Shown here: positions 1 through 14,528 of the stretch, piece after piece
Layout: each line of letters starts with the position of its first letter
Position numbering within the stretch: position 1 is the first letter of the stretch
Assembly: GCF_002608075.1 (NCBI RefSeq)
Contig: NZ_LAHA01000035.1
Location: 14,453 to 77,333, forward strand
DNA length: 62,881 nt
Direction: 5' to 3'
From: Nostoc linckia z4
Lineage (GTDB): Bacteria > Cyanobacteriota > Cyanobacteriia > Cyanobacteriales > Nostocaceae
Notes under the pieces: model-generated
Databases searched by the model: none
Told to the model about the DNA's origin: nothing
What the model saw: only the letters and a program-made list of their open reading frames with translations
Translations under genes and position numbers: made by a program

Positions 1-130
1 CCTCTCAATTTCTGGCGTTGCAGAATCAAAATATGAATCATGCGATCGTTTCAAGCTTGCGGATCTGACTTAATTCGCACCTTGGGCATTTTATAGCGAT
101 CGCTCTCATTCATATTTCTATTCTCAAAAC

Positions 131-703
131 ATGGTGACGTTCCTCAATGACTTAAACAATAACGTCAAAGGTTTTGACAACTCCAATGATGTCATTAATG
201 GTCAAGGCGGTAATGACACAATTGATGGTTTAAGTGGCAATGACTATCTGCGTGGTGGAGCAGGCAATGATATCCTCATCGGTGGTGCAGGCAATGATAC
301 TCTAGCTGGCGGTGCTGGTAACGATGTGCTTACGGGTGGCAATAATGCCGATTCTTTTATTTTCAACACCAATGCCACTTTCACTAACTCTGCTGTTGGT
401 ATCGACCAAATCACTGACTTCACACGTTCTCAAGGTGACAAAATAGTTTTAGATAAAACCACCTTCAGTCAAATTACCTCTGCTGCTGGAAATGGTTTTA
501 GTAATGTGGCTGATTTTGTGGTTGTCAATTCCACCCAAATTCAACAAGGCATCACCAGCGCTGCAATTGTTTATGATGCTGTCAGTGGGGGGTTATTCTA
601 CAACGAAAATGGTAGTGCCCCTGGTTTTGGCAATGGCGGTCAATTTGCAACTCTGGCTGGTCTGCCAAATCTGTCGGCATCTGATTTTGTTATCCAAGCC
701 TAA
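131..703 (+). CDS. Hemolysin-type (RTX) calcium-binding repeat protein; the N-terminus may extend upstream
   Basis: Tandem GGxGNDxL nonapeptide beta-roll repeats ([29 protein letters not shown]) read directly from the translation. Confidence 0.6.
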
Positions 704-1204
704 GACACCCAATACTCACAGCAGGGTGCAAACAGCGTTAGATCTTCATTAAGCTAAAAAACATCTAAATTGCATAATCAAAATCTAATCATCATTAGAC
801 TTCTAAGAGAAGTGGGGAAAAGGGTAAGGGGTAAAGGGGAAAGCGGCTCATAAAAACCCTTTTCCCTTTAACCGAAACGTATTGAGGGAGAGGCTGTTGG
901 CGGCAGTCTCTCCTTTCCTCTGGGAATGACGATGGTTCAAAGAATTTGTATATTTTATTTTTTTGGAACTTCCTTAATTGAAGTGAGAAACAGCAAAGTG
1001 CTGCGGGAGCAGTGTGATACTAAATCCCAGAATTGTCCCACAATTAGGTCAAACCTCTGTAGCTGCGTTGTTGCTTGATACTCGATGCAACATTCCGCAA
1101 CAAATAAACCCTAATTAAGCAACCCTTATCAATGAAAAACCCGCCCTCGAACGCGAGAAAGCGGGTTTTAAGCAGAATGGATTTGTTTTGCTTATATCAA
1201 AGAA

Positions 1205-1651
1205 TCATTCAAGACTATTTGGGAAGAAAGCAGCAGGTGAAATATGAAAAAATTTCGCTAGTTCTTCAATGTGTCTAGTTGTTAGTTTACGCTGCTTTTT
1301 CAATATGGCCGATATAATAGATTCTGTTTTGAAAATGGGTAGTAAATCTTTTTGACGTAATCCATTTTCTTCTATCAAAACCTGAAGTAAATCTATTCCA
1401 TAAATATCAGGTATAGGCTCTTGTGCTTGTTCATACTCGTAAACCAGAGTGCCTAAAATATTAAGATAATCTTTTTCATCTAATGTTAATGGGGCACTAT
1501 CTATCAAAGAATTAATAACTTCTTGAGTAGCAAATAACTCCTCCTCAGTCTTGATAGGACGAGGAGGGAATGCTTGCAACAGTTCAATGTATGTAGGGCG
1601 TTTATTTAAACCAAGGGTCATTTTTCCATTTATTTGTATCGTACTCTGCAT
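1205..1651 (-). CDS. higA: HigA-like antitoxin, HTH (XRE-family) DNA-binding protein
   Basis: 148 aa with a C-terminal HTH-like segment (TTRHIEELAKFFHISPAAFF). It overlaps the upstream toxin ORF in the toxin-first arrangement typical of higBA. Confidence 0.55.
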   Translation of the reverse strand: MQSTIQINGKMTLGLNKRPTYIELLQAFPPRPIKTEEELFATQEVINSLIDSAPLTLDEKDYLNILGTLVYEYEQAQEPIPDIYGIDLLQVLIEENGLRQKDLLPIFKTESIISAILKKQRKLTTRHIEELAKFFHISPAAFFPNSLE

Positions 1652-1904
1652 GAGTTAATACGTTGCGAATAAATACTTTTTGACTTTGATAGTCAATAAA
1701 AGTAATAAGCCGATATTTATTTCCTTGAATATTAAAAACCGTAAGTTCACCTACTGAATCGGCAGAGTTGAAAGTTTCACGAACTTCAAGTATATTTTGC
1801 CACTTGGCTGATTTTACGGCTTTGTTCCAACCACGTAAACTAGATTCAGCATCAGGATACTTTTGATAAAAAAGTTTTAATGCTGTATTGGAAATTACAT
1901 GCAT
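1602..1904 (-). CDS. higB: HigB/RelE-family type II toxin (mRNA interferase)
   Basis: 100-aa protein. It sits upstream of an HTH antitoxin gene and overlaps it by about 50 nt on the same strand. Size and context fit a HigB-like toxin. Confidence 0.55.
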   Translation of the reverse strand: MHVISNTALKLFYQKYPDAESSLRGWNKAVKSAKWQNILEVRETFNSADSVGELTVFNIQGNKYRLITFIDYQSQKVFIRNVLTHAEYDTNKWKNDPWFK

Positions 1905-2650
1905 AGTAGATGTATTTTTTCAGAATAAATTTCATGATTTGACTTCCTTTGCAGTAGTTGAAACGACTCATAATTAATTACAACTTAGCAAATTGCTAAG
2001 TGAATGTCAACAGTTTAATGATTGGCTTTCGCTTTACCCTTATACTTCAATTAAACTCGTATACATGTTTAATGAAACAGAGAGTAGCTTTAAACCTGTA
2101 TACAGGTTTCTAGACTTCATTTAAAGGATAAAGTAATTCGTAATGGTCTACGGTTTTATCGACTTCTTGACCTTAAAACCATTCAATCCAGTCCTCTATA
2201 TCATCAGTTTCTACTACTCTCATTTTTACTTCATCAAAATCCTCTATTGTATAAAAAACTTTATATTTTCGGTTTATATCTAATGTGCTATCGCTCATAC
2301 ATTTATAAAATCTAAAACTATAAACCTGTATACAAGTATTTAATTACGCTTTTCATAATTTTATTTTTATACAAAAGTCAGTAAACTACCCTGTTTTTGA
2401 AAAAAGCAGGGGAAGCAGGGGAGGCAGGGGGAGAAGAAAGAGGGGTTATAAAAACGGATTTGGTATGAGGTAAGAAAATTAAAGTAATTTTGTCTAAATA
2501 GCTAAAACCTTCACCAGACAAGGAATCTAACCAAAATGCCAGTATGAGTGCGCCCTATTGGCGCTTGGCTGTGAGTAAATTCCAAAATTGCTTGATGTCA
2601 AAGGTTTTCAAGCATTTTGATGCAACTGAACTATTCTTCACATCTCAAGG

Positions 2651-3745
2651 TTGCATATTTTGATTTCAGTTCTCCCAAGAAGTAATACAGAAGGCAGTCA
2701 AACGATTACCTCAAACCAAATCAAACATCATTCTCATCTAAATCTAAAGTATATGCCTAACCCAAATTTGACAGACATTGCAAACAATCCAATTGTATAT
2801 GCACCTACGCAGACTGAGCCAGCAAACAAATATGCAAATTACTCACAAGCGAGTTCAGCGTTTGATATTTCTGAGGTAGATAACTTTCCCTTGGACAGCG
2901 ATTACGACCTCACAACCGAGCAAATCCATAACTTTCAGCACGATGGACATTTGCTGGTGCGCGGTGTAGTTTCTCCCAAAGAAATAGCTATCTACAAACC
3001 TGCGTTAGTAGAAACAGTTGACCGCTATGACCGAGAACAGCAAGCGATGGAAAAGACTGTTAGCGGTCAAAGTCAAGGATGGCAGTTTGTTGAAAACCTT
3101 TACCAACTCGATTTAGTTGCCCAACGCTTTGTTTTAGCTCGTCGGTTTGGCAAGATTGCTGCCGATTTATTAGGAGTTGATACTGTCCGCTTATTCCGCG
3201 ACCAATCTTATTTCAAAAAACCAGGAGGCGGTAATACACCGTGGCATCAAGATGGTTACTTTATGCCCCTAGATACAACTCAAATAGTCACAATGTGGAT
3301 TGCTTTGTCGGAGGTTTCCCCAGAAATGGCACCGATGACTTTTGCTAGCGGTTCCCACAAACAGGGCTATATCGGGGCTTCAATGCCGCTGGATGAGTCA
3401 ATGGATGAGTTTGAGCAATCCATTATTAAATCGGGGTTTCAACTCAAAAATTATGGAGCAATGGCAGCCGGAGATGCAAGTTTCCATTCTGGCTGGACGC
3501 TGCACAGTTCGCGCAAAAACACAAGCGATCGCACCCGCGAAGCCTTAGTGATTGTTTTTTACGCCGATGGAGCCAGGGTAACGATGCCCCCTGTACCCGC
3601 CAATGCTCTACCGCAGGAGCAGTTTGCCGCTGTAATTCGCCAACGCAACTTATCTACCTGTTTGCCAGGATTGAAACCGGGAGACTTGGCTGAAACTTCC
3701 ATGAATCCAATCGTTTACCGAAGAACTCTGACTTCTGAATTCTGA
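2651..3745 (+). CDS. Phytanoyl-CoA dioxygenase (PhyH)-family Fe(II)/2-oxoglutarate oxygenase; the true start may be an internal Met near 2753
   Basis: PhyH-like motifs (PWHQDGYF, HSGWTLHSS). An in-frame Met (MPNPNLTD) lies downstream of the first ATG. Confidence 0.5.
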   Translation: MHILISVLPRSNTEGSQTITSNQIKHHSHLNLKYMPNPNLTDIANNPIVYAPTQTEPANKYANYSQASSAFDISEVDNFPLDSDYDLTTEQIHNFQHDGHLLVRGVVSPKEIAIYKPALVETVDRYDREQQAMEKTVSGQSQGWQFVENLYQLDLVAQRFVLARRFGKIAADLLGVDTVRLFRDQSYFKKPGGGNTPWHQDGYFMPLDTTQIVTMWIALSEVSPEMAPMTFASGSHKQGYIGASMPLDESMDEFEQSIIKSGFQLKNYGAMAAGDASFHSGWTLHSSRKNTSDRTREALVIVFYADGARVTMPPVPANALPQEQFAAVIRQRNLSTCLPGLKPGDLAETSMNPIVYRRTLTSEF

Positions 3746-3830
3746 ATTCTTCTTCATTTTCCCATCTCAAACCTAGCGAACCAGCAACCGCCGAAATTAA
3801 TCCGATCGCTTACTCATCTTTGTTTCTGTC

Positions 3831-6068
3831 ATGGTTTACCAACGCACTCATACCTGGCTCTACTCTTTAAAAGACTCTCTGCAACCCCTCAAGCCGCATC
3901 TGACCCCCCTAGTCTGCCCGCAAGCGATAGAACAACTCGACTCTGTAAGCAGTTACTTTCCAGATGCGATCGCTTCGACTTATGGCTTTGAATATCGCCT
4001 GCAACCTTCTGCTCCAGTAGTTGACTTTGCTTTTCAAATTACCGATACCGGTCGAGACATTTTAGCAGGCTTAAACCCCCATACACGTCTGTCGGAGGAT
4101 TTTAACAAACATCCCGTTTGGCAACAAATTCAGAAGTTCTCCACCGAATGGGCAGATCCTTCTTCCTTACTCCATTACTTCATTAGCGATCTTTGGTTAG
4201 AGTTTGATTTAAAGCTGGATGGCGATACTAGTAGCTCGCCAAGTTCACTTGGCGGGGTAAAGGGGAAAGGGGAAAGGGGAAAGGTTTTAAATCCCTTACC
4301 CTTTACCCCTTCCCCCAGCCCTGACCCAGCATTTTTGGGTTGCCAGACTACTAATATCCCCATACCTGGGTTATTTTTCGGAGTGACTAGCCCACCAGAT
4401 AATTCAGGAATCTCCTTCAACTACTCTTGGATTTGGGAACAAGCTATGCCTTTATTATTAGGCACGCCTTTGCCTCCCGCCTTAGAGAAAAAATTCATCG
4501 ACTGTATCAAACGGTTGCCTCCCCGAACCAGCATTTTTCAGGTTGGGCTGATGTTTTCCCGAACCGTGGAAGCAATAAGACTCTGCCTTGTCGGTTCTCC
4601 TTCGGAATTGCTGCCATACTTGAATGAAATAGGCTGGACGGGACAGCTTGCGGAGGTAGAAAAGCTCGTCAACTCCCTTTCTGGCTGCGTTGATGGCATT
4701 ATCCTCGACCTTGATATTGGCGAACAGATTTACCCGCGAATTGGCATTGAAGGAATTTTTCTCACCCGGTACCAAGCCTGCGTAAACGGACAATGGGAAT
4801 CGCTGCTAGATTATCTAACTTCCCAAGGTTTATGTGCCAAAGAAACCAAAGATGCTTTGCTCAAATACTCTGGTTATAGCTTAGTAAAGCATCTGGGCGA
4901 TCGCATTTACGTCCGGGGGTTGAACCATATCAAACTCATTTATCAATCAGGGCAACCCCTAGCAAGCAAAATTTATTTTGGTGCAATGCATCAACCCCTG
5001 AGTAAAATACCTGGGCGTTCTGCTGAGACGGTAAGTACAGAGGACGCAACCAAGCAAGAACGTGGCGACGGGGGGAGAGTTTCCCATATCGAATCAGCCG
5101 TTACTTTTTTGCTAACTGCACGGAATTCTGAGGGGTGGTGGATTGATTTTCACCTAGCGGCTGGCTTGAGCGATGAATGGGTGACTGGTTATGTAGGAAC
5201 AATGTTAGCGAATATACCCGATTCCCGCGTTTCTAAAGCTGTTTCCACAGCTTGGAATCTGCTCAATAGTCGCCGCCATCGCGTCAATGGCAAATGGGGT
5301 TACAATCGTTTGCCCCCTGGCGATGCAGATAGTACTGGTTGGGTACTCCAGCTTGCCCGCGCTATTGGTGAGAGTAATTCAGAACGGGCGCGTCAAGCGA
5401 TGCAATCCCTAGCAGATCATAAGCGGCCGGATGGAGGTATTTGCACCTATGAGAGTGAGGAATCGATTCGGGCTTTTATTCATGCTTCTCCGGAAATCGG
5501 ATTTGCGGGTTGGTGCGGTTCCCATACTTGCGTGAGTGCGGCAATAGCAGCTTTGCCGGAATACCGCTTTCAGCTTCAAGATTATTTGCGATCGACTCAG
5601 CAAAATGATGGTAGCTGGCTGGCTTACTGGTGGCAAGATCCCGAATATGTAACAGCTCTAGCGGCTGAGGCGATCGCCGCTTGTTATCCAAATTCTGATT
5701 GTATTACCAACGCCGTGGCGTGGGGAATGAACCGCCTTAGTTCTCAGGGATTTGTCGCAACTAGCGATTGCCCCTCTGGTTCGCCATTTGCCACAGCTTG
5801 GTGCTTGCGACTGCTGATACTGAGACGGCAAGATACCGCAGTACAAGCAGCGATCGCCAAGGCAACTGATTGGTTATTAGCACAGCAACAGCCCAATGGT
5901 TCTTGGATTTCGTCAGCCAGGTTGCAAGTTCCATTACCGGATGACCTAAATCCCAATAAATTTAACCAGTGGATTTACCACGGCACGATTCAAGGCAGTG
6001 TAGTTTTTGACAAGTATTGTGTCTTCACCACCGCCACCGTATTACAAGCTCTACATCGTAGTTTATAA
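3831..6068 (+). CDS. Protein whose C-terminal ~400 aa carry squalene/terpene-cyclase or prenyltransferase-type alpha/alpha-toroid repeats
   Basis: Repeated QxxxGxW-like motifs (QQNDGSWLAYWW, QQPNGSWIS, GWWIDFHLAAG). Immediately upstream of the LanM-like gene and co-oriented with it. The low-complexity Gly/Lys/Pro segment is encoded by an inserted palindromic repeat. Confidence 0.5.
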   Translation: MVYQRTHTWLYSLKDSLQPLKPHLTPLVCPQAIEQLDSVSSYFPDAIASTYGFEYRLQPSAPVVDFAFQITDTGRDILAGLNPHTRLSEDFNKHPVWQQIQKFSTEWADPSSLLHYFISDLWLEFDLKLDGDTSSSPSSLGGVKGKGERGKVLNPLPFTPSPSPDPAFLGCQTTNIPIPGLFFGVTSPPDNSGISFNYSWIWEQAMPLLLGTPLPPALEKKFIDCIKRLPPRTSIFQVGLMFSRTVEAIRLCLVGSPSELLPYLNEIGWTGQLAEVEKLVNSLSGCVDGIILDLDIGEQIYPRIGIEGIFLTRYQACVNGQWESLLDYLTSQGLCAKETKDALLKYSGYSLVKHLGDRIYVRGLNHIKLIYQSGQPLASKIYFGAMHQPLSKIPGRSAETVSTEDATKQERGDGGRVSHIESAVTFLLTARNSEGWWIDFHLAAGLSDEWVTGYVGTMLANIPDSRVSKAVSTAWNLLNSRRHRVNGKWGYNRLPPGDADSTGWVLQLARAIGESNSERARQAMQSLADHKRPDGGICTYESEESIRAFIHASPEIGFAGWCGSHTCVSAAIAALPEYRFQLQDYLRSTQQNDGSWLAYWWQDPEYVTALAAEAIAACYPNSDCITNAVAWGMNRLSSQGFVATSDCPSGSPFATAWCLRLLILRRQDTAVQAAIAKATDWLLAQQQPNGSWISSARLQVPLPDDLNPNKFNQWIYHGTIQGSVVFDKYCVFTTATVLQALHRSL
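4254..4316. repeat. Palindromic small dispersed repeat (GGGGAAAGG-type) inserted in-frame in the 3831..6068 CDS
   Basis: ggggtaaaggggaaaggggaaaggggaaagg ... cccttaccctttaccccttccccc inverted repeat. A related element occurs at about 822..882 and about 2401..2450 in intergenic DNA. Confidence 0.7.
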
Positions 6069-6079
6069 GGAAAATTAAG

Positions 6080-9000
6080 ATGAACCCAGTTATTTCTAGT
6101 ATCTCTACACAGCAGTTGCCCGCGATCGCCAACCCCGTTATTTCTACAACTCAGTTGCAAAGCATCGTTAGCCGCGCTAGCAATCTGTTTGAACGACTCG
6201 ATCGCCAGATTTTCTCACCCTCCCCCGAAACTGATGAAAAACTCTTGCAATCGCGTCTTGAGACTTGGTGTCAGACAGTAGCAAAAGGAAATTTCGAGCA
6301 TTTTCAACAATACTTGCAATGGGATGGGCTGAATTTAGAAACAGCAAAAAGCGCGATCGCACCTGTATGTTTGCGCCACGATGCTCCCCTACCCAACTGG
6401 GCAAAGACACTCTCATCTGTTCTCAATCTTGCCTTTTCTCAGGCAGCAACAAATCTTGATGCAAAGACCTCACATCGCTTTTTGATTCCCCAGTCTCCCC
6501 TTCCCTTTGAAGAGATTCTCGCTCCATTTGTTTTATTTGCTCAACAAGAACTAATTGCTAGAACTGGCGAGTCTTACCAGAGATTAACCGATGAGGTTCA
6601 TGGTGTATTTGAACGCAGTTTGCTAGGTCAGTTAATTGACATCGCCACACAACCTTTACAGATAGCTTTTACCAGTTGGCGAGTCGCTCAACAATCCTCT
6701 TTTACTCGTCTACTGACACAGACACAAGAACTGCAAAGCCGCAACCTCTATATCCGCTTTGTTCGGGAAATGTTGCAGGGCAAACTAACTTCTTTTTTTG
6801 TAGAATATGCTGCTTTAGCAAGGTTACTGGCTACGGCAACCGAACTTTGGGTAGAATCGCAGTTAGAATTTCTGCATCACTTGGACGCAGACTGGTCAGA
6901 AATTGCAGAGAAATTTAACAACGGTTTACCTCTCGGTCAGGTGACAGCGGTGCAGCCTCTCCGATCTGACCCCCATCGCGGCAGACGCTCTGTAATTACA
7001 CTGAAAATCGAGCCAAATCTGCACTTAGTATACAAACCCAAGCATTTAGGCATTGAACAGGCGTACAATCAGTTTTTGGCTTGGTTAAACGAACAGGGTT
7101 CTCCTCTGCCTCTAAAAACCTTGCAAGTAATTAACCGCGATACTCACGGCTGGGTAGAGTTTGTCACCTCCCAAGCCTGTGAAGATACAGCCCAAATAGA
7201 ACGCCATTACCAACGGGCAGGGATGTTATTATGTTTGGTTTACGTGCTAGATGCTACCGATTGTCACTACGAAAATATCATTGCCTCTGGAGAATATCCA
7301 GTTCTAATTGATACCGAAGCTGTGATGCAGCATCGACCGAAAAACGAGTCATCAGCAAACCTACAGACTGCTCAACAACTCGCATTCCATCGCGTAGATA
7401 ATTCCGTGATGCGTACTGCCTTATTACCTGTCTGGCATCCAGCAGCCAATGGTAACTCCGGCTTTGATTTCAGTGGCTTGGGCAGCCACAATCAAGAGAC
7501 TAGGCATTATAAAGGACTCCAGTGGTCTGGCGTAAATACAGACCAGATGGCTTTAAATCAAAAGCTGCTGGCGATCGATCCATTTTTAGCTCACGTGCCA
7601 ACCTTAAATGGACAACCTGCCAATTTATCAGACTGGATAGAGGCAGTGGTGGAAGGATTTGAGCAGATGTATCGCTTCCTGCAAGAGAAACAAGACGTGT
7701 TACTCTCCCCAGATAGCCCGCTGCGGACAATGGCAAAACAGCTTGTGCGCTTTGTGTTTCGCCCCACAAACACTTATTTGAGAATTTTAAGCAAGCTCCG
7801 TAGTTCAGAGTACTTGCGGGATGGAGTTGACCGCAGTATTGGACTGGAAATCCTCAAGTTAACAGCAGCAGGCGCAACTGAAAAACCAAAATTCTGGTCT
7901 CTTCTCCAGTCTGAACGCCAACAAATGGAGCAGTTGGATGTTCCTTTTTTCTCAATTTATCCTGATACAGATGTGTTGGAGTTATCCCCAGATAGTCGCG
8001 TTGAGGGATTTTTCCAAGGTTCTAGCTTTGAATTAGTACTAGAGCGCATCAACAACCTGAGCAAATCTGATTTGGCGATACAAGTTGATTTTATCCGCAG
8101 CACTCTATATTTAAGAATGGTTCCCGGTCAAGAGATAGCTGCACCGGAAAAACCTGCCAATCAAACTTCTCTAAGCGTGCAGCAATCATCTGAGGCGATG
8201 CTGGATGAGTCAGATTTGGTTGCTGAGGTCATGGCAATTGCCCGCAGATTAAAAGAGCGAGCGATTTGCGCTCCTGATGGATCTGTAACTTGGCTTGCTC
8301 CTCAGTTTATCGCTCAACAACAGCGATTCCAATTTCAACCCACAGAACTGAGCCTTTTTGATGGCAAATTAGGAATTGCATTATTTCTGGCAGCGGTAGA
8401 GCATATTAAAAAAGATGGAGAGTTTCGAGAACTGTGTTTGGGAGCGTTGCAGGAGTTTCGTCAGGCGGTAGCCAAAATTGAACAGCCAAAAGGTGAATTC
8501 TCAAACCTGAATCTTGGCTTATCAACTGGACTAGGAGGATGGATTTACAGCCTGACTAAAATCGGTCAGTTTCTCAATGACGATCGCTTGCTTGCAGATG
8601 CTCTAAATTTGGCATACTCGATAGTACCAGAGGCAATTACTAGCGATCGCAGTTTGGATATCGCCGGCGGTACAGCAGGTACGCTTTTGAGTTTATTGGC
8701 ATTGTACCAGGTTGTTCGCGACCCAATTGTGCTAGAACGTGCCTGCCTGATTGGTCGTCATTTATTAGCCGAAAGTGTAATAACTTCTAAAGGCAGAGCT
8801 TGGAAAACGCTGGATGGTCGATTGTTAACGGGCTTTTCCCACGGAGCAGGCGGAATTGCCTACGCCCTGCTGAAACTGGCACAGGTGACGAATGATGCTG
8901 AGTTTCGGGCGGCTGCCGCAGAAGCGATCGCCTACGAACAAAGTATATTTTTACCAGAGGTAGGCAACTGGCCGGATCTCAGGGACTTTTCTAAATTTCT

Positions 9001-9448
9001 CCAAGCAAGTGCCAAATCCGAATCTTCTTCACTGATGTCTAGTTGGTGTCACGGTGCAACCGGTATCGGTTTAGCCCGCCTTGGCGGACTGCCAATGTTA
9101 GAAACTGAAGCAATCGATCGGGATATCCAAGTGGCAATCAAAACTACCCAAAAGCAACTCACCCAGAAACAAGGGATAGTAAACCAACTATGCTGCGGTC
9201 AGATGGGACAGATTGAATTTCTGCTATGTGCAGCCAGCCGATTGGGAAAACCAGATTTGTTGACAAATGCCAAAATTCATGCATTACAAATTGTGCAGCA
9301 AGCAAGACACAAAGGATATTATCTCGAACCCGCCCTACACTCAAGCGTATACGTTCCTGGTTTATTCCGTGGTGAGGTTGGTATTGGTTATACTTTGCTG
9401 CGCCTAACTCATCTGGAACAACTGCCTTCAATTCTTTTATGGGAATAG
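6080..9448 (+). CDS. lanM: Class II lanthipeptide synthetase-like protein (LanM-like: N-terminal dehydratase region plus C-terminal LanC-like cyclase)
   Basis: 1122 aa. The C-terminus has LanC-type zinc-ligand motifs (GFSHGAGGIAYALL, SWCHGATGIGLARL, LCCGQMGQIEFLL). Length and a long N-terminal domain fit LanM. Confidence 0.7.
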   Translation: MNPVISSISTQQLPAIANPVISTTQLQSIVSRASNLFERLDRQIFSPSPETDEKLLQSRLETWCQTVAKGNFEHFQQYLQWDGLNLETAKSAIAPVCLRHDAPLPNWAKTLSSVLNLAFSQAATNLDAKTSHRFLIPQSPLPFEEILAPFVLFAQQELIARTGESYQRLTDEVHGVFERSLLGQLIDIATQPLQIAFTSWRVAQQSSFTRLLTQTQELQSRNLYIRFVREMLQGKLTSFFVEYAALARLLATATELWVESQLEFLHHLDADWSEIAEKFNNGLPLGQVTAVQPLRSDPHRGRRSVITLKIEPNLHLVYKPKHLGIEQAYNQFLAWLNEQGSPLPLKTLQVINRDTHGWVEFVTSQACEDTAQIERHYQRAGMLLCLVYVLDATDCHYENIIASGEYPVLIDTEAVMQHRPKNESSANLQTAQQLAFHRVDNSVMRTALLPVWHPAANGNSGFDFSGLGSHNQETRHYKGLQWSGVNTDQMALNQKLLAIDPFLAHVPTLNGQPANLSDWIEAVVEGFEQMYRFLQEKQDVLLSPDSPLRTMAKQLVRFVFRPTNTYLRILSKLRSSEYLRDGVDRSIGLEILKLTAAGATEKPKFWSLLQSERQQMEQLDVPFFSIYPDTDVLELSPDSRVEGFFQGSSFELVLERINNLSKSDLAIQVDFIRSTLYLRMVPGQEIAAPEKPANQTSLSVQQSSEAMLDESDLVAEVMAIARRLKERAICAPDGSVTWLAPQFIAQQQRFQFQPTELSLFDGKLGIALFLAAVEHIKKDGEFRELCLGALQEFRQAVAKIEQPKGEFSNLNLGLSTGLGGWIYSLTKIGQFLNDDRLLADALNLAYSIVPEAITSDRSLDIAGGTAGTLLSLLALYQVVRDPIVLERACLIGRHLLAESVITSKGRAWKTLDGRLLTGFSHGAGGIAYALLKLAQVTNDAEFRAAAAEAIAYEQSIFLPEVGNWPDLRDFSKFLQASAKSESSSLMSSWCHGATGIGLARLGGLPMLETEAIDRDIQVAIKTTQKQLTQKQGIVNQLCCGQMGQIEFLLCAASRLGKPDLLTNAKIHALQIVQQARHKGYYLEPALHSSVYVPGLFRGEVGIGYTLLRLTHLEQLPSILLWE

Positions 9449-9460
9449 CAGCTTTTGAAT

Positions 9461-9497
9461 TTACCGCGACGTGATGCGTAGAATCAAGTCGCGGTAA
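9461..9497 (+). terminator. Putative stem-loop terminator downstream of the LanM-like gene
   Basis: 10-bp inverted repeat ttaccgcgac...gtcgcggtaa followed by a T-rich stretch (gctgtttgtt). Confidence 0.35.
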
Positions 9498-9718
9498 GCT
9501 GTTTGTTATTGTCACAATTAATTTTGCAGTTGTAGTCTAACTACCAAATCCCAACTTGTATATCTATAGAATATAGTGATAGCTATTGAGCCTAACACCA
9601 ATTATCCTCTGCTTCTATCTGTAATTGAAAAGCAATGAGATGAGATTCAATTATATTTGCTACGTCAGTTTTTTTAATTTATCTAGCGATCGCACCTTTA
9701 ATATTGCAAATAGTCTGC

Positions 9719-10174
9719 TCACTCCACCAACAACCCACTCACTACCAAAACCCTCAACTCCGTCACCCGCTTAAAAGCCGCATCATTAGTCAAAAACGCC
9801 TCACAACCAGCCATTAAAGCCGCCGCCACCTGCAACGCATCGGGTAACTGAAGGTTATAACGCACCCGAATTTTCGCGGCTTCTCGCGCAATAGCAGCAT
9901 TAATTTCTACAAAAACTACTTGTTCTTGTTGCAACATATCGACAAAAGCCTGCTCTAAATCCACTAACCCCAGACGTATAGCACCCACCAAACACTCTGA
10001 TAACGTTATTCCAGATACTACTGCTGTAATGTCAGCTTCTAACCGATCAAAAATTGGATCGACTAAATCCACAAACAACGGATTCCGTTCTACAAAATAA
10101 ATTACGGGTGCTGTGTCGAGAAATAAGCGAGAAACTCCAGCTAAGGCATCACTAATCTTCATTGTTCTGTTCAC
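9719..10174 (-). CDS. vapC: PIN-domain VapC-family toxin
   Basis: 151 aa with PIN-like acidic residues in conserved positions (LFLDTAPVIYF...TNDAAF). It overlaps an upstream small antitoxin ORF by 4 nt. Confidence 0.65.
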   Translation of the reverse strand: MNRTMKISDALAGVSRLFLDTAPVIYFVERNPLFVDLVDPIFDRLEADITAVVSGITLSECLVGAIRLGLVDLEQAFVDMLQQEQVVFVEINAAIAREAAKIRVRYNLQLPDALQVAAALMAGCEAFLTNDAAFKRVTELRVLVVSGLLVE

Positions 10175-10428
10175 AACAACCGTTCTCGATGCTCATCTCC
10201 TTCCCGTCGAGTCCGCGAAACCCATTCTTGAGCATCTTCACCTAATAATGGATAGGGAGCCATACCCTTCAAATCGCTCCACTTGCGTTTTGGTTGCGCC
10301 TGAGTGATATGTTTCTTTACACGCTCCAGCAAATGCCCCATCACTGTCAATTGCTCCTCTGGAGTCAGTTGTTCAATCTCGCTTAAAACTTTTTCAAGTG
10401 ATGGACTCATCAACCTAACCCTTATCAA
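10171..10428 (-). CDS. vapB: VapB-like antitoxin (start probably at the internal Met MSPSLEK)
   Basis: Small ORF directly upstream of the PIN toxin with a 4-nt overlap. Coupled arrangement typical of vapBC. Confidence 0.45.
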   Translation of the reverse strand: MIRVRLMSPSLEKVLSEIEQLTPEEQLTVMGHLLERVKKHITQAQPKRKWSDLKGMAPYPLLGEDAQEWVSRTRREGDEHRERLL

Positions 10429-10793
10429 CAGAATTAAATTGTAGCGTCTTTACTCTTCTGCTCTGGCGTAACTTTTAGATAACGTTGCAACCTTCCCTCT
10501 TCGCTCGGATCGCTACCTATGGGGTTTTCTCAGCAAAATAGATAAAAATTTCAGTAGGTCGAAAACTTTTATTAGAGGATGTTTGAAACAGTCGAAACCA
10601 GTCAAAAATCATGCTAGTCATCCGATCGTAATACGAATCATGACAAGATAAATGAATGTCTTTGAGGTTTCAGGTAGTCTTTTATAATCCTTTATTTAGA
10701 TTAAAAACTTGGTGAATTTGACGAAATGATGGGGTTTCAGCCGATGATGTTGGAAAGAGCGATCGCTCTATTCGTTTATCCAATACTAGGTAC

Positions 10794-13700
10794 TTGAAAA
10801 TCAGATTTTACAGTAATTCAGTAATGGCTACCTACTTTGAGGGTGTGATGTCTAAAGTAAGTATGGGTGAAAACTGGTTTTTAAAGCTAGGGATGGTTGC
10901 GGTTAATGTCAGACATTTAGATTGGTTACTTACATTAGGAATGGCGATCGCATTTCACCCAAATATCGCCATTGCACAAATCACCCCAGATACAACATTA
11001 CCCAATAATAGCAATGTAAATACACTAAATAACATTACAAATATCACTGGTGGCACACAAGCAGGAACTAATCTGTTTCACAGTTTCAGCGAATTTTCTG
11101 TTCTCAAAGATACTACAGCTTACTTTAATAATCCTCCAGATATTCAAAATATTATTAGTCGAGTTACAGGTGGTTCGCAATCAAAAATAGACGGAATTTT
11201 GCGGACGAACGCTACAGCGAATTTATTTTTAATTAATCCAAACGGCATTATTTTTGGAGAAAATGCCCGCTTAGATATTGGTGGTTCATTTATTGCTAGC
11301 ACAGCAAGTAGCATCAAATTTGCTAATGGTTTTGAGTTCAGTGCTACGACTCCTGAATCTACACCTTTACTAACGATAAATACACCCATTGGCTTGCAAT
11401 ATGGAGTTAATCCAGCCACTATTGAGGTCAAAGGCGACGGTCAAGGTGTAAGGCTCACAGATGAATTGATTGATACAACAAATGCACTGCGAGTACCAGC
11501 CAATCAAACTTTAGCCTTGGTGGGTGGCGATATTTCCTTAGAGGGAGCAACGCTAAAGACAGCAGGGGGAAGAATAGAGTTAGGCAGTGTAGGGGATAAC
11601 AGTTTAGTTAGTCTCACACCGATAACTAAAGGTTTTGCCTTGAGCTACGATGGAGTGCAAAACTTTGGCAATATTCAACTATCAAAACTTTCAGCGGTAG
11701 ATGCCAGTGGCGCAGGTAGCGGTGACATCCAAATCCAGGGTCAGCGGGTTACCATAGCCGATGGTTCCCAGATAGAAGCAAGTACTCTGTTAGAAGAAAA
11801 AGGTGGGAATTTAGTAGTCAATGCTACTAATTCAGTAGAATTAATTGGTACATCTGCTGATGGTTACTTTTCCAGTGGCTTGCTTGCTTCTGCTTACTCA
11901 ACCGGGGATGCCGGAGACTTGACAATTAATACTCAAAATTTGCTTGTGCTAGATGGGGCGCAAGTAAGTACAGCCACATTTGGTACGGCTAAGGGCGCTT
12001 CTTTAACTGTCAATGCTCAAGATGTGCAACTGATTGGTACTACTGCCGATGGTCTTTTTCCCAGTGGCTTGTTTGTTTCTACTCAATCAACAGGAGATGG
12101 CGGAGACTTGACAATTAATACCCAAAATTTGCTGGCGATCGATGGGGCACAGGTAGCTGTATATACATCTGGTGCAGGTAAGGCGGGTTCTTTAACTGTC
12201 AATGCTAAAGATGTGCAAATGATTGGTACTGTCAATAGTCAGTTTCCCAGTGGCTTGTTCAATTATGCTTACTCAACCGGGGATGCCGGAGACTTGAGGA
12301 TTAATACCCAAAATTTGCTTGTGCGCGATGGAGCTAATGTTGCTACGCAGACATATAGTGCAGGTAAGACGGGTTCTATAACTGTCAATGCTGAAGATAT
12401 ACAACTAATTGGTAGGAGTCCAAATGGTGACTTTGCCAGTGACTTATCTGTTAACGCTGGTTTAGGGTCAACTGGGGATGCTGGAAATTTGACGATTAAT
12501 ACCCAACGTTTGCTCGTGCGGGATGGGGCATACGTTGATGCCAGCATATACGGTACAGGTAAGGGTGGTTCTTTAACTATCACTGCTAATGATATACAAC
12601 TGATTGGTACTTCTACTGATGGTCGCTTTAGGAGTGGCTTGTTTACTCAAGCTTATTCAGGAATAACTGGGGATGCCGGAAACTTGACAATTAATACCCA
12701 ACGTTTGCTTGTGCTAGATGGCGCACAAATAGATGCAGAGACATATGGTGCAGGTAAGGGGGGTTTTTTAACTATCACTGCTAAAGATGTACAACTGATT
12801 GGTACTTCTAGTAATGGTTACTTTCCTAGCGGCTTGTTGACTTCTACTCTCTCAACCGGAGATGCAGGAAACTTGAAAATTGATACCCAACAGTTGCTTG
12901 TGCGGGATGGGGCACTGATAAATACCAGTACATCGGGTACAGGTAAAGGAGGTTCTTTAACTGTCACTGCTAACGATGTGCAACTGATTGGTGAGTCTAT
13001 TGATGGTTATCTTAAGAGCCGTTTATTTACTACTGCTGCCGTTGGAACAACTGGCAATGCAGGAGATTTGACAATTAATACTCAATATTTGCTGGTACGG
13101 GATGGTGCATTTGTTGATGCCAGTACACAAGGTACAGGTAAAGGAGGTTCTTTAACTGTCAATGCTCAAGATGTGCAACTGATTGGTGTCTCTAGTGATG
13201 GGCGTTCTGGCAGTGGTTTGAATACATCTGCTCAGTCAGGGTCAACTGGCGATGCTGGAGACTTGACAATTAATACTCAACAGTTGCTCGTGGGCGATGG
13301 GGCACAGGTGGGTGCAACCACATCGGGCGTAGGCAAGGGAGGTTCTTTAACTGTCAATGCCAAAGATGTGCAATTGATTGGTACTACTGCTGATAGTCGC
13401 TTTCCCAGTGGCTTGTTTACTACTGCTTACACAGGAGCAACTGGGGATGCAAAATTTTTGACAATTAATACCCAACAATTGCTTGTACGTGATGGGGCAA
13501 AAATCAGCGCCGGAACACAGAGTGCAGGTAAAGGGGGTTCTTTAACTGTCAATGCTCAAGATGTGCAATTGATTGGTACGTCTGCTGATGGTAGTTCTAG
13601 TAGTGGCTTGTTTGCTTCTACTGAATCAACTGGGGATGCAGGAGATTTAAAGATTAGTAGCGATAAATTACTCGTTCAAGATGGGGCGATAATCACTGTC

Positions 13701-14528
13701 AGAAGCTCAGGTAAAGGAATTGCAGGGAATTTAAATATTGATGCTGACTTTATCCGTTTGAACAACAAGGCTTCTGTTGATGCTAATACCCAGGCTGTCA
13801 ACACTGACCCGACTCAAGAACAAGCTACTATTACTTTGCGCTCTCAAAATTTACTATTGCTTCGTAATAGTAAAATCACCACTAATGCTTCTGGAGAAAA
13901 TGTCATCGGTGGCAATATCAATATTAATACTGATTTTTTAGTTGCATCTGACAATAGTGATATCAGTGCTAATTCTGCTGACTTTCGAGGTGGTCAGGTG
14001 ATAATCAATGCCAAAGGAGTATTTGGTACTCAATTTCGTGATGCACTCACCCCAAATAGCGATATCACTGCTACAGGAGCTAATCAGCAGTTGAATGGTA
14101 CAGTGCAACTCAATACACCACAACAAGATCCCACAAATGGTTTAGAGGAATTGCCATTAGAAGTAGTGGATGCCTCACAATTAATTAACCAAAACTTCTG
14201 TGCCAAAAGAGGTAATAGTAGCTTCACCATCGTTGGACGTGGTGGTTTACCTTCTTCCCCCAACACTGTGCTTAACAATAATACAGTTTGGGAAGATTGG
14301 CGAGTCACTGCTGTGCCAACACAAGCAGCAGAGTACACCAGTAAAAGAGATATTGAGAAAACTTCAGCACTCAGTACAGAGATTGTAGAAGCTCAGGGGT
14401 GGGTTGTGAATGCTAAAGGTGAAGTGATACTGACAGCTGCTGCACCGACTCCAAGACCCCACAGCTTGAGGAATTTACTTCAAGGGGCGACAAGCGAGTT
14501 AAAGTGCTTGCTGTATAAGCAGCATTGA
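10794..14528 (+). CDS. Large exoprotein with a filamentous-hemagglutinin N-terminal (TPS) secretion domain and ~60-aa tandem repeats (TpsA-like)
   Basis: N-terminal TPS-domain signature (NLFHSFSEFSV...ANLFLINPNGIIFGENARLDIGGSFIAST). About ten repeats of GDAGDLTINTQ.LLV.DGA...GKGGSLTVNA.DVQLIGT. The start codon is uncertain; several in-frame Met/TTG candidates. Confidence 0.7.
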   Translation: MKIRFYSNSVMATYFEGVMSKVSMGENWFLKLGMVAVNVRHLDWLLTLGMAIAFHPNIAIAQITPDTTLPNNSNVNTLNNITNITGGTQAGTNLFHSFSEFSVLKDTTAYFNNPPDIQNIISRVTGGSQSKIDGILRTNATANLFLINPNGIIFGENARLDIGGSFIASTASSIKFANGFEFSATTPESTPLLTINTPIGLQYGVNPATIEVKGDGQGVRLTDELIDTTNALRVPANQTLALVGGDISLEGATLKTAGGRIELGSVGDNSLVSLTPITKGFALSYDGVQNFGNIQLSKLSAVDASGAGSGDIQIQGQRVTIADGSQIEASTLLEEKGGNLVVNATNSVELIGTSADGYFSSGLLASAYSTGDAGDLTINTQNLLVLDGAQVSTATFGTAKGASLTVNAQDVQLIGTTADGLFPSGLFVSTQSTGDGGDLTINTQNLLAIDGAQVAVYTSGAGKAGSLTVNAKDVQMIGTVNSQFPSGLFNYAYSTGDAGDLRINTQNLLVRDGANVATQTYSAGKTGSITVNAEDIQLIGRSPNGDFASDLSVNAGLGSTGDAGNLTINTQRLLVRDGAYVDASIYGTGKGGSLTITANDIQLIGTSTDGRFRSGLFTQAYSGITGDAGNLTINTQRLLVLDGAQIDAETYGAGKGGFLTITAKDVQLIGTSSNGYFPSGLLTSTLSTGDAGNLKIDTQQLLVRDGALINTSTSGTGKGGSLTVTANDVQLIGESIDGYLKSRLFTTAAVGTTGNAGDLTINTQYLLVRDGAFVDASTQGTGKGGSLTVNAQDVQLIGVSSDGRSGSGLNTSAQSGSTGDAGDLTINTQQLLVGDGAQVGATTSGVGKGGSLTVNAKDVQLIGTTADSRFPSGLFTTAYTGATGDAKFLTINTQQLLVRDGAKISAGTQSAGKGGSLTVNAQDVQLIGTSADGSSSSGLFASTESTGDAGDLKISSDKLLVQDGAIITVRSSGKGIAGNLNIDADFIRLNNKASVDANTQAVNTDPTQEQATITLRSQNLLLLRNSKITTNASGENVIGGNININTDFLVASDNSDISANSADFRGGQVIINAKGVFGTQFRDALTPNSDITATGANQQLNGTVQLNTPQQDPTNGLEELPLEVVDASQLINQNFCAKRGNSSFTIVGRGGLPSSPNTVLNNNTVWEDWRVTAVPTQAAEYTSKRDIEKTSALSTEIVEAQGWVVNAKGEVILTAAAPTPRPHSLRNLLQGATSELKCLLYKQH

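Follow-up and report, generated by a model that had tools for sequence, protein, structure and literature searches.

Gene organization of the locus

We analyzed a stretch of 62,881 nucleotides (nt) from Nostoc linckia z4 (contig NZ_LAHA01000035.1, positions 14,453 to 77,333 of the forward strand), called the window below, in which an earlier note had described a gene for a LanM-like lanthipeptide synthetase and an upstream partner gene with no visible precursor peptide. Three co-oriented genes lie here on the plus strand: a gene for a PhyH-family Fe(II)/2-oxoglutarate dioxygenase (330 amino acids (aa); 2753..3745), a 745-aa open reading frame (ORF; 3831..6068), and a 1122-aa ORF (6080..9448). 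The two longer ORFs were present where the note had placed them, and the short spacer that it reported between them was also found, but it measured 11 nt (6069..6079) and not 12 bp. The 745-aa ORF is predicted to encode a fused maturase with an N-terminal prenyltransferase (P) domain (3831..5000) and a class II terpene cyclase (C) domain (aa 415–745; 5073..6068). The 1122-aa ORF encodes a class II lanthipeptide synthetase (LanM), with a dehydratase domain (aa 243–626; 6806..7957) followed by a LanC-like cyclase domain with a CCG-type zinc site (aa 754–1120; 8339..9439). We consider it highly probable that 2753..9448 holds the enzyme genes of a lanthipeptide cluster with nitrile hydratase-like leader peptide (NHLP) precursors, and that its product carries a cyclized geranylgeranyl (pseudosteroid) group on tryptophan.

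The 1122-aa protein scored 894.9 bits against the NCBIfam LanM model TIGR03897 (cut-off 304) and matched the Pfam families DUF4135 (3.6e-122) and LANC_like (2.2e-60). The motifs DCHYEN (394), IDTE (410), GFSHG (918), WCHG (989), and CCG (1038) could be read directly and were intact; the roles of the kinase-like catalytic motifs and of the zinc ligands are those generally known for LanM enzymes. On these sequence grounds the protein can be assigned without ambiguity to the class II lanthipeptide synthetases, which bears out the note's description of a LanM-like protein with intact LanC-type zinc-ligand motifs.

A prenyltransferase fused to a terpene cyclase

The note had also recognized squalene-cyclase/prenyltransferase-type QW repeats in the C-terminal half of the 745-aa protein, and this terpene-cyclase call was correct: two QW-type motifs (Q590..G594.W596 and Q686..G690.W692) were invariant among relatives. 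The C-terminal third scored 26.1 bits against Pfam SQHop_cyclase_C, exactly at the gathering score. Scores against TIGR01787 (1.5e-10, 40.4 bits; cut-off 322.7) and TIGR01507 (26 bits; cut-off 431, with a matching part of aa ~480–694 only) fell far below the family cut-offs. The squalene-hopene and oxidosqualene cyclases share with the C domain a class II, protonation-initiated chemistry and the QW motifs, and one of their two alpha/alpha-toroids is matched here. Those enzymes, however, are two-domain beta-gamma proteins of ~630–730 aa, whereas the C domain is a single toroid of ~330 aa. Because the TIGR01787 score was 40 against 322.7 bits and there is one toroid domain, we rejected a squalene-hopene or oxidosqualene cyclase identity; the protein is not a triterpene cyclase.

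A profile built from 17 homologs and searched against PDB sequences matched MstE (E ~1e-140, profile positions 364–708), to which the C-terminal domain was 55% identical. MstE acts in merosterolic acid biosynthesis in Scytonema (PDB 6SBB–6SBG) as a stand-alone enzyme on a geranylgeranyl-dihydroxybenzoate, whereas the cyclase domain studied here is fused behind a prenyltransferase. With the MstE numbering offset fixed by the Y157F and R337A mutant chains, D500 (codon 5328..5330) aligned with the MstE catalytic acid D109, the residue mutated in 6SBD and 6SBE. It lies in an invariant GDAD(S/T)TGW motif, here GDADSTGW, and is the predicted catalytic acid of the C domain. Two positions differ from MstE: Y157 is replaced by an invariant Phe, and R337 falls in a six-residue segment missing from the 745-aa family. 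R337 reportedly contacts the benzoate carboxylate in MstE.

Sequence-family searches were blank for the N-terminal half, as residues 1–390 gave no Pfam match even at E ≤ 1 and no NCBIfam match. The predicted secondary structure of these residues showed a repeated alpha-beta-beta-alpha (ABBA) pattern, and structure comparison alone resolved the half as an ABBA prenyltransferase barrel. Identity to the ABBA prenyltransferases CymD, MpnD, DMATS/FgaPT2, PagF/PatF, and MppC was 7–12%. In contrast to the protein studied here, these enzymes are unfused, mostly use C5 or C10 donors, and have no downstream cyclization domain. One of them, the lanthipeptide prenyltransferase MppC, is described in PMC12715784 as prenylating, in a leader-dependent manner, the Trp of a LanM-cyclized cyanobacterial peptide with a long leader. 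Taking sequence and structural models together, the 745-aa protein is best read as a bifunctional peptide maturase in which an ABBA prenyltransferase is joined to a terpene cyclase of class II.

The alpha/alpha-toroid fold is common to many families, LanC among them, and the Pfam match was borderline. Both facts could favor a fragmentary or degenerate LanC-like protein serving as a second lanthionine cyclase, and the note had allowed for a LanC-like pseudogene. The probability of such an identity is practically negligible: the ORF is intact and under purifying selection (a ratio of non-synonymous to synonymous substitution rates, dN/dS, of 0.14–0.20), there was no LANC_like match at E ≤ 0.01, a Cys/His zinc site is lacking, and the acid motif DxD(S/T)T is kept. 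Both a second LanC-like cyclase and Zn-dependent Cys prenylation by a toroid of the protein-prenyltransferase-beta type were ruled out by three features: the 55% identity to MstE, the acid motif, and an ABBA domain that stands apart.

The P domain carries the in-frame repeat insertion that the note had pointed out. It is a palindromic, hairpin-forming element of ~117 nt (4233..4349, plus strand; aa ~135–173), with G-rich GGGGAAA-type arms and their C-rich complement, a DNA fold of −29 kcal/mol (z = −3.6), and no stop codon, so that the reading frame is kept as claimed. The element was missing from the orthologs in Nostoc calcicola FACHB-3891 (locus L011 of our set of related loci) and in a Nostoc metagenome-assembled genome (MAG; L012). 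We found a related copy at 806..843, and the translated insert matched unrelated Nostoc proteins; presumably the element belongs with the small dispersed repeats of Nostoc genomes. In the structural model the insert forms a surface loop between two barrel strands that is predicted to be disordered, with a predicted local distance difference test score (pLDDT) below 50 over aa 129–173. Nostoc sp. DSM 114161 (L004) had a different hairpin element at the identical site, after ACTAGT (L004 ~10400–10540), which suggests that small dispersed repeats insert preferentially at this site inside a coding loop. An Rfam scan of 1..11000 gave sub-threshold microRNA-hairpin matches on the inserted palindrome alone, which we rejected as noise.

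Precursor genes beyond the left edge of the window

Having found no precursor gene, the note proposed precursors encoded in trans, as with the prochlorosins, or a non-canonical substrate. Within the window its observation stood. A small-ORF listing held no Cys/Ser/Thr-rich ORF in the flanks 1850..3900 and 9400..10850, a tblastn search with 18 NHLP or Nif11 precursors from related loci gave no match anywhere in the window, and neither did regular expressions for WTGC and YYLVLP. The absence did not extend to the locus. Contig LAHJ01000032.1 of Nostoc linckia (GCA_002607925.1; L007), which encodes the identical 745-aa protein, corresponds to the window from its base 2178 onward (a single mismatch over 16,068 bases), and on the same strand as the enzyme genes it contains two genes for 203-aa NHLP precursors (255..866 and 1370..1981). 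Measured back from window base 1, these genes end at distances of 1,311 nt and 197 nt; the 745-aa gene follows ~4 kb downstream of them. The note had itself allowed for a precursor just outside the regions inspected, and this is where the genes lie; neither of its two proposals was supported.

Both precursors matched Pfam NHase_alpha (8.7e-14) over two stretches, giving a tandem double NHLP leader. At the junction the sequence reads ELVAGG followed directly by SDTQNHSWTGCASGQSGCVATKGC, so that a double-glycine site ends the leader, and the core, SDTQNHSWTGCASGQSGCVATKGCDAAVATVGVTLAATAAL, was identical in the two. The maturase is hence encoded beside precursors of a peptide synthesized ribosomally and modified after its translation (RiPP) that have a nitrile-hydratase-alpha-like leader, a GG motif, and a core containing Cys, Ser, Thr, and a conserved Trp.

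A blastn comparison of L007 with L011 and L012 lost homology at L007 ~2091–2190 and regained it at 4749, which delimits a strain-specific insertion of ~2.6 kb between the precursor genes and the enzyme genes (window ~13..2572). The inserted DNA has a G+C content of 0.32–0.35 and consists of an RTX-repeat gene (131..703, plus strand; Pfam HemolysinCabind), a HigBA pair on the minus strand (a HigA-like gene at 1205..1651 and a HigB toxin gene at 1602..1904; Pfam HigB_toxin), and AT-rich DNA. Without the insertion, as in L011 and L012, only ~350–400 nt lie between the PhyH gene and the last of the precursor genes. The precursor was missing because the window edge combined with this insertion; its absence is an artifact of the two.

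An orphan LanM and partner that act on trans-encoded, prochlorosin-like precursors, or on a non-peptide or otherwise non-canonical substrate, are in our view very improbable. Such a system would fit the lack of a precursor ORF in the window, and in Nostoc sp. DSM 114161, alone among the related loci, the 10 kb to the left and to the right were free of NHLP genes. The CCG zinc-site motif of the LanM is, moreover, typical of the promiscuous ProcM-type enzymes. The two NHLP genes nevertheless lie in cis on the same contig and strand and abut the PhyH gene in the nearest relatives; extra copies in trans may exist but are not needed. The N-terminal part of the core is, furthermore, nearly invariant (see below), which is the opposite of a promiscuous many-substrate system. 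OspM (landornamide), DprM, and the ProcM-type CCG LanMs are likewise class II synthetases that work on a long structured nitrile-hydratase-like leader, with cleavage at GG and several precursor genes in each cluster as common traits. Here, unlike in those systems, variation is confined to the tail, with almost no change in the first ~18 core residues, and the leader in the Nostoc clade consists of two tandem NHLP domains.

The PhyH gene and a repeated upstream element

The dioxygenase scored 91.3 bits against Pfam PhyH (PF05721; cut-off 22; 1.3e-25), and H165-Q-D167 together with a downstream His makes up the HxD...H triad. The mechanically called ORF, 2651..3745, begins at TTG 2651. We placed the start at ATG 2753, as annotated in L007, because a conserved element of ~100 nt ends there (~2640..2752, plus strand). 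Copies of the element precede both NHLP genes (L007 136–254 and 1251–1369) as well as the PhyH gene, and it is present in L011. The three copies here and two in L011 had 81% mean column identity and ended at the ATG, and blastn returned them as 88-nt repeats. The repeats may represent copies of one promoter or 5' leader that these genes share. An Rfam scan of 1..11000 assigned it to no family, and a promoter/terminator scan of 1900..3900 gave fewer promoter-like sites than shuffled sequences.

Most related loci have PhyH, but it is missing from L010 and from L017, an Acidimicrobiaceae MAG, and we therefore regard it as an accessory tailoring enzyme. Two loci had a second, divergent PhyH paralog (36% identical) between PhyH and the fused gene (L013 7153–7995; L015 7153–7980). 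In Hymenobacteraceae, a PhyH gene (33% identical; L036 10151–10984) comes after a fused gene, and the association of PhyH with the fused enzyme thus extends beyond the cyanobacteria. The PhyH calls in L001 (8557–9996) and L008 (4659–5930) were N-terminally extended, to 479 and 423 aa, with a faint Nif11 Pfam match; perhaps the dioxygenase carries a fused leader-like domain there, or the gene was called too long.

Related loci and a conserved core

Synteny was assessed by searching every retrieved locus with tblastn, the four proteins and domains of the window serving as queries. Homologs of the 745-aa prenyltransferase-terpene cyclase (PT-TC) form a small family, almost all of it cyanobacterial, and one to eight NHLP genes lay directly upstream in the retrieved contexts. 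The order NHLP, PhyH, PT-TC, LanM was kept in L001, L003, L005/L014, L008, L009/L016, L011, L012, L013, and L015; L010 and L017 had NHLP, PT-TC, LanM without PhyH. With PhyH as an optional member, the order is conserved across ~12 cyanobacterial loci and one actinobacterial MAG, and the LanM gene was always immediately 3' of PT-TC. PT-TC identity fell to 53% among cyanobacteria and to 43% in L017. The pairing of the LanM and 745-aa genes that the note had singled out is real and functionally meaningful. In L017 (7419–13473) an NHLP gene with the core EWTGCASGQSGCVATNGC is followed by PT-TC (43% identical) and LanM (51% identical). Comparison of these sequences points to spread of the whole cassette across phyla with the core motif intact.

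All 27 precursor cores, from 12 loci, contained WTGC, and 24 of them fitted WTGCASGxxGC(V/I), usually followed by ATxGC; beyond ATxGC the tails were hypervariable. The Trp of WTGC was the sole aromatic residue conserved in all 27. The distant loci L001, L003, L008–L010, and L017 had a single NHLP domain, and the Nostoc clade had two in tandem (leader about 160–178 aa).

Compared with L011, L012, and L005, dN/dS was 0.10–0.20 for PhyH, PT-TC, and LanM; against the distant L001, synonymous sites were saturated. The three genes are therefore not pseudogenes.

Outside these loci, clusters at 50% identity contained dozens of full-length representatives of the fused ~700-aa architecture, and also stand-alone cyclases (~340 aa) and prenyltransferase-like proteins (~360 aa). 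Fused genes occurred in Acidimicrobiia, Solirubrobacteraceae, Hymenobacteraceae, and Mucilaginibacter. The near-complete genome of Nostoc linckia NIES-25 (L034; AP018222.1) had only an 86-aa cyclase fragment (8001–8258; aa 531–616, 97% identical), which looks like the remnant of a deleted cluster.

Downstream of LanM, the minus strand carries a PIN-domain (VapC-like) toxin gene with a small antitoxin-like ORF upstream of it (9719–10428), and 10794–14528 encodes a 1244-aa repeat exoprotein with a two-partner-secretion domain. Both appear to lie outside the cluster.

Comparison with NctPC

The closest parallel to this gene set is NctPC. In a review (PMC13290415, citing Hubrich, Kandy, Chepkirui et al., Chem 2024, 10:3224), NctPC is an ABBA prenyltransferase fused to an MstE-like cyclase that attaches a C20 geranylgeranyl group to Trp and then cyclizes it. 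The prenyltransferase part reportedly resembles the cyanobactin prenyltransferases little, and a cyanobacterial proteusin/NHLP precursor as the substrate and a co-encoded class II lanthionine synthetase are reported for NctPC as well. Two further articles credit the work of Hubrich et al. with macrocyclization before lanthipeptide prenylation (PMC12715784) and give the product the name steromaze (PMC13647313). All architectural features that we examined agree with NctPC: an ABBA P domain, an MstE-like single-domain C domain with a catalytic Asp, NHLP precursors whose invariant core Trp corresponds to the Trp acceptor, and a LanM. The original abstract is said to describe a cyanobacterial proteusin as the substrate and a pseudosteroid-annelated polycyclic peptide as the product; maturases of this kind were reportedly predicted for proteusin, Nif11, and lasso clusters. 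Possible differences from the published cluster are the P-domain insertion of 39 aa in the N. linckia copy, its tandem NHLP leader, its PhyH gene, and the displacement of its precursor genes by 2.6 kb. By analogy, the locus is a member of the recently described polycyclic-isoprenoid-modified proteusin lanthipeptides, a family that is known but young. Literature searches on the core motif, on PhyH, squalene, and lanthipeptide, and on PF13243 with RiPP returned nothing relevant.

A different assignment would have the 745-aa protein make a small-molecule meroterpenoid, as MstE does, with the adjacent LanM gene there by coincidence or as part of a hybrid cluster with separate products. MstE, the closest solved homolog, cyclizes a prenylated benzoate according to the PDB titles, ABBA prenyltransferases commonly use small aromatics, and many MstE-like cyclases stand alone (among them those of L018, L026, and L028–L031). 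We nonetheless judge this assignment very unlikely, because the NHLP/PT-TC/LanM order persists from 90% to 43% identity in two phyla and the one aromatic residue common to all cores is the Trp of WTGC. The segment with MstE R337 is, in addition, deleted, and for the homologous NctPC the review cited above (PMC13290415) reports action on a Trp of a peptide.

A proposed pathway

A peptide pathway that joins these genes can be proposed from domain identities, folds, catalytic-motif conservation, the presence of precursors, synteny, and purifying selection, all of which we observed at the locus or among its relatives. The substrates would be the two identical-core precursors, each with its tandem double leader, GG site, and core SDTQNHSWTGCASGQSGCVATKGCDAAVATVGVTLAATAAL. 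LanM would bind the NHLP leader, dehydrate core Ser and Thr residues, and form up to three thioether rings at Cys11, Cys18, and Cys24. For the ring pairs we infer Thr9–Cys11, Ser13 or Ser16–Cys18, and Thr21–Cys24. The P domain would then transfer a prenyl group, most likely C20 geranylgeranyl from geranylgeranyl diphosphate (GGPP), to the indole of the invariant Trp8 of WTGC. Cyanobacteria make GGPP for their pigments, and no dedicated synthase would be needed. In the C domain, D500 would protonate the terminal (distal) alkene and set off a cation-olefin cascade that cyclizes the chain. The Trp acceptor, the C20 donor, the cyclization, and the placing of lanthionine formation before prenylation are carried over from what the sources above relate of NctPC. 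From the gene content, the PhyH dioxygenase would contribute an accessory oxidation; its substrate, and the activity of the N. linckia copy as a whole, we likewise infer. Cleavage after GG and export would fall to a C39-peptidase ATP-binding cassette (ABC) transporter of the PCAT (peptidase-containing ABC transporter) type together with HlyD, as suggested by the genes of sister loci.

Several points weigh against this pathway. Prenyl chain length, attachment atom, and cyclization product are assigned to this clade by analogy, and membership in the NctPC type draws on a second-hand description of architecture and context rather than on an alignment. The position of MstE Y157 is occupied by F549, and the AlphaFold2 models reached a moderate mean pLDDT of 72–74 from 14–17 sequences only. 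Function or co-expression could be impaired by the 39-aa insertion in the P domain or by the 2.6 kb of foreign DNA between precursors and enzymes. Contig LAHJ01000032.1 has no leader peptidase or exporter gene, whereas C39-peptidase ABC transporter and HlyD-type genes are present in L011, L005, L003, and L009.

The last of these points are also what one would expect if the locus were, in this strain, a decaying and non-functional remnant disrupted by mobile DNA. The hairpin element in the P domain and the RTX/HigBA insertion that splits the operon are both strain-specific, and the fragment in NIES-25 indicates that loss of the cluster occurs in the species. All ORFs are intact, however, including both precursors; the hairpin element went in without a stop or a frameshift, into a loop that is predicted to be disordered. 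The low dN/dS values and the conserved element still present upstream of PhyH also speak against decay, and at the start of LAHJ01000032.1 there are 254 nt before the first precursor gene is reached, so the transporter may be on another contig. Decay therefore appears unlikely, and we retain an NHLP-leader lanthipeptide cluster with a cyclized geranylgeranyl on Trp as the preferred interpretation.

Implications

The clade could also constitute an uncharacterized variant of the polycyclic-isoprenoid RiPP family. We put this forward tentatively and with considerable doubt; Hubrich et al. 2024 may already cover all of it. Marks of such a variant are the near-invariant 18-residue core (N/S)WTGCASGQSGCVATNGC, found from Nostoc to Acidimicrobiia, and its fusion to hypervariable tails of 10–65 residues that are often very hydrophobic and rich in Ala, Gly, and Val. 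The tandem double NHLP leaders of the Nostoc clade and a dedicated PhyH, duplicated in some loci, are further marks. If this were true, the variable tails would form a natural library, with the constant lanthionine-plus-pseudosteroid module acting as its membrane anchor or warhead, and PhyH would add an undescribed oxidation to the terpenoid or to the peptide.

Our results correct the annotation of the fused gene, whose entries in public records include "hypothetical", to a bifunctional peptide prenyltransferase and terpene cyclase. They also illustrate how a synthetase can look like an orphan when a small mobile insertion coincides with the cut of a window. To a RiPP class known only since 2024 they add this N. 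linckia cluster, roughly a dozen syntenic loci, and an exactly defined core motif, and these loci and the motif could guide the heterologous production of steroid-like lipidated lanthipeptides.

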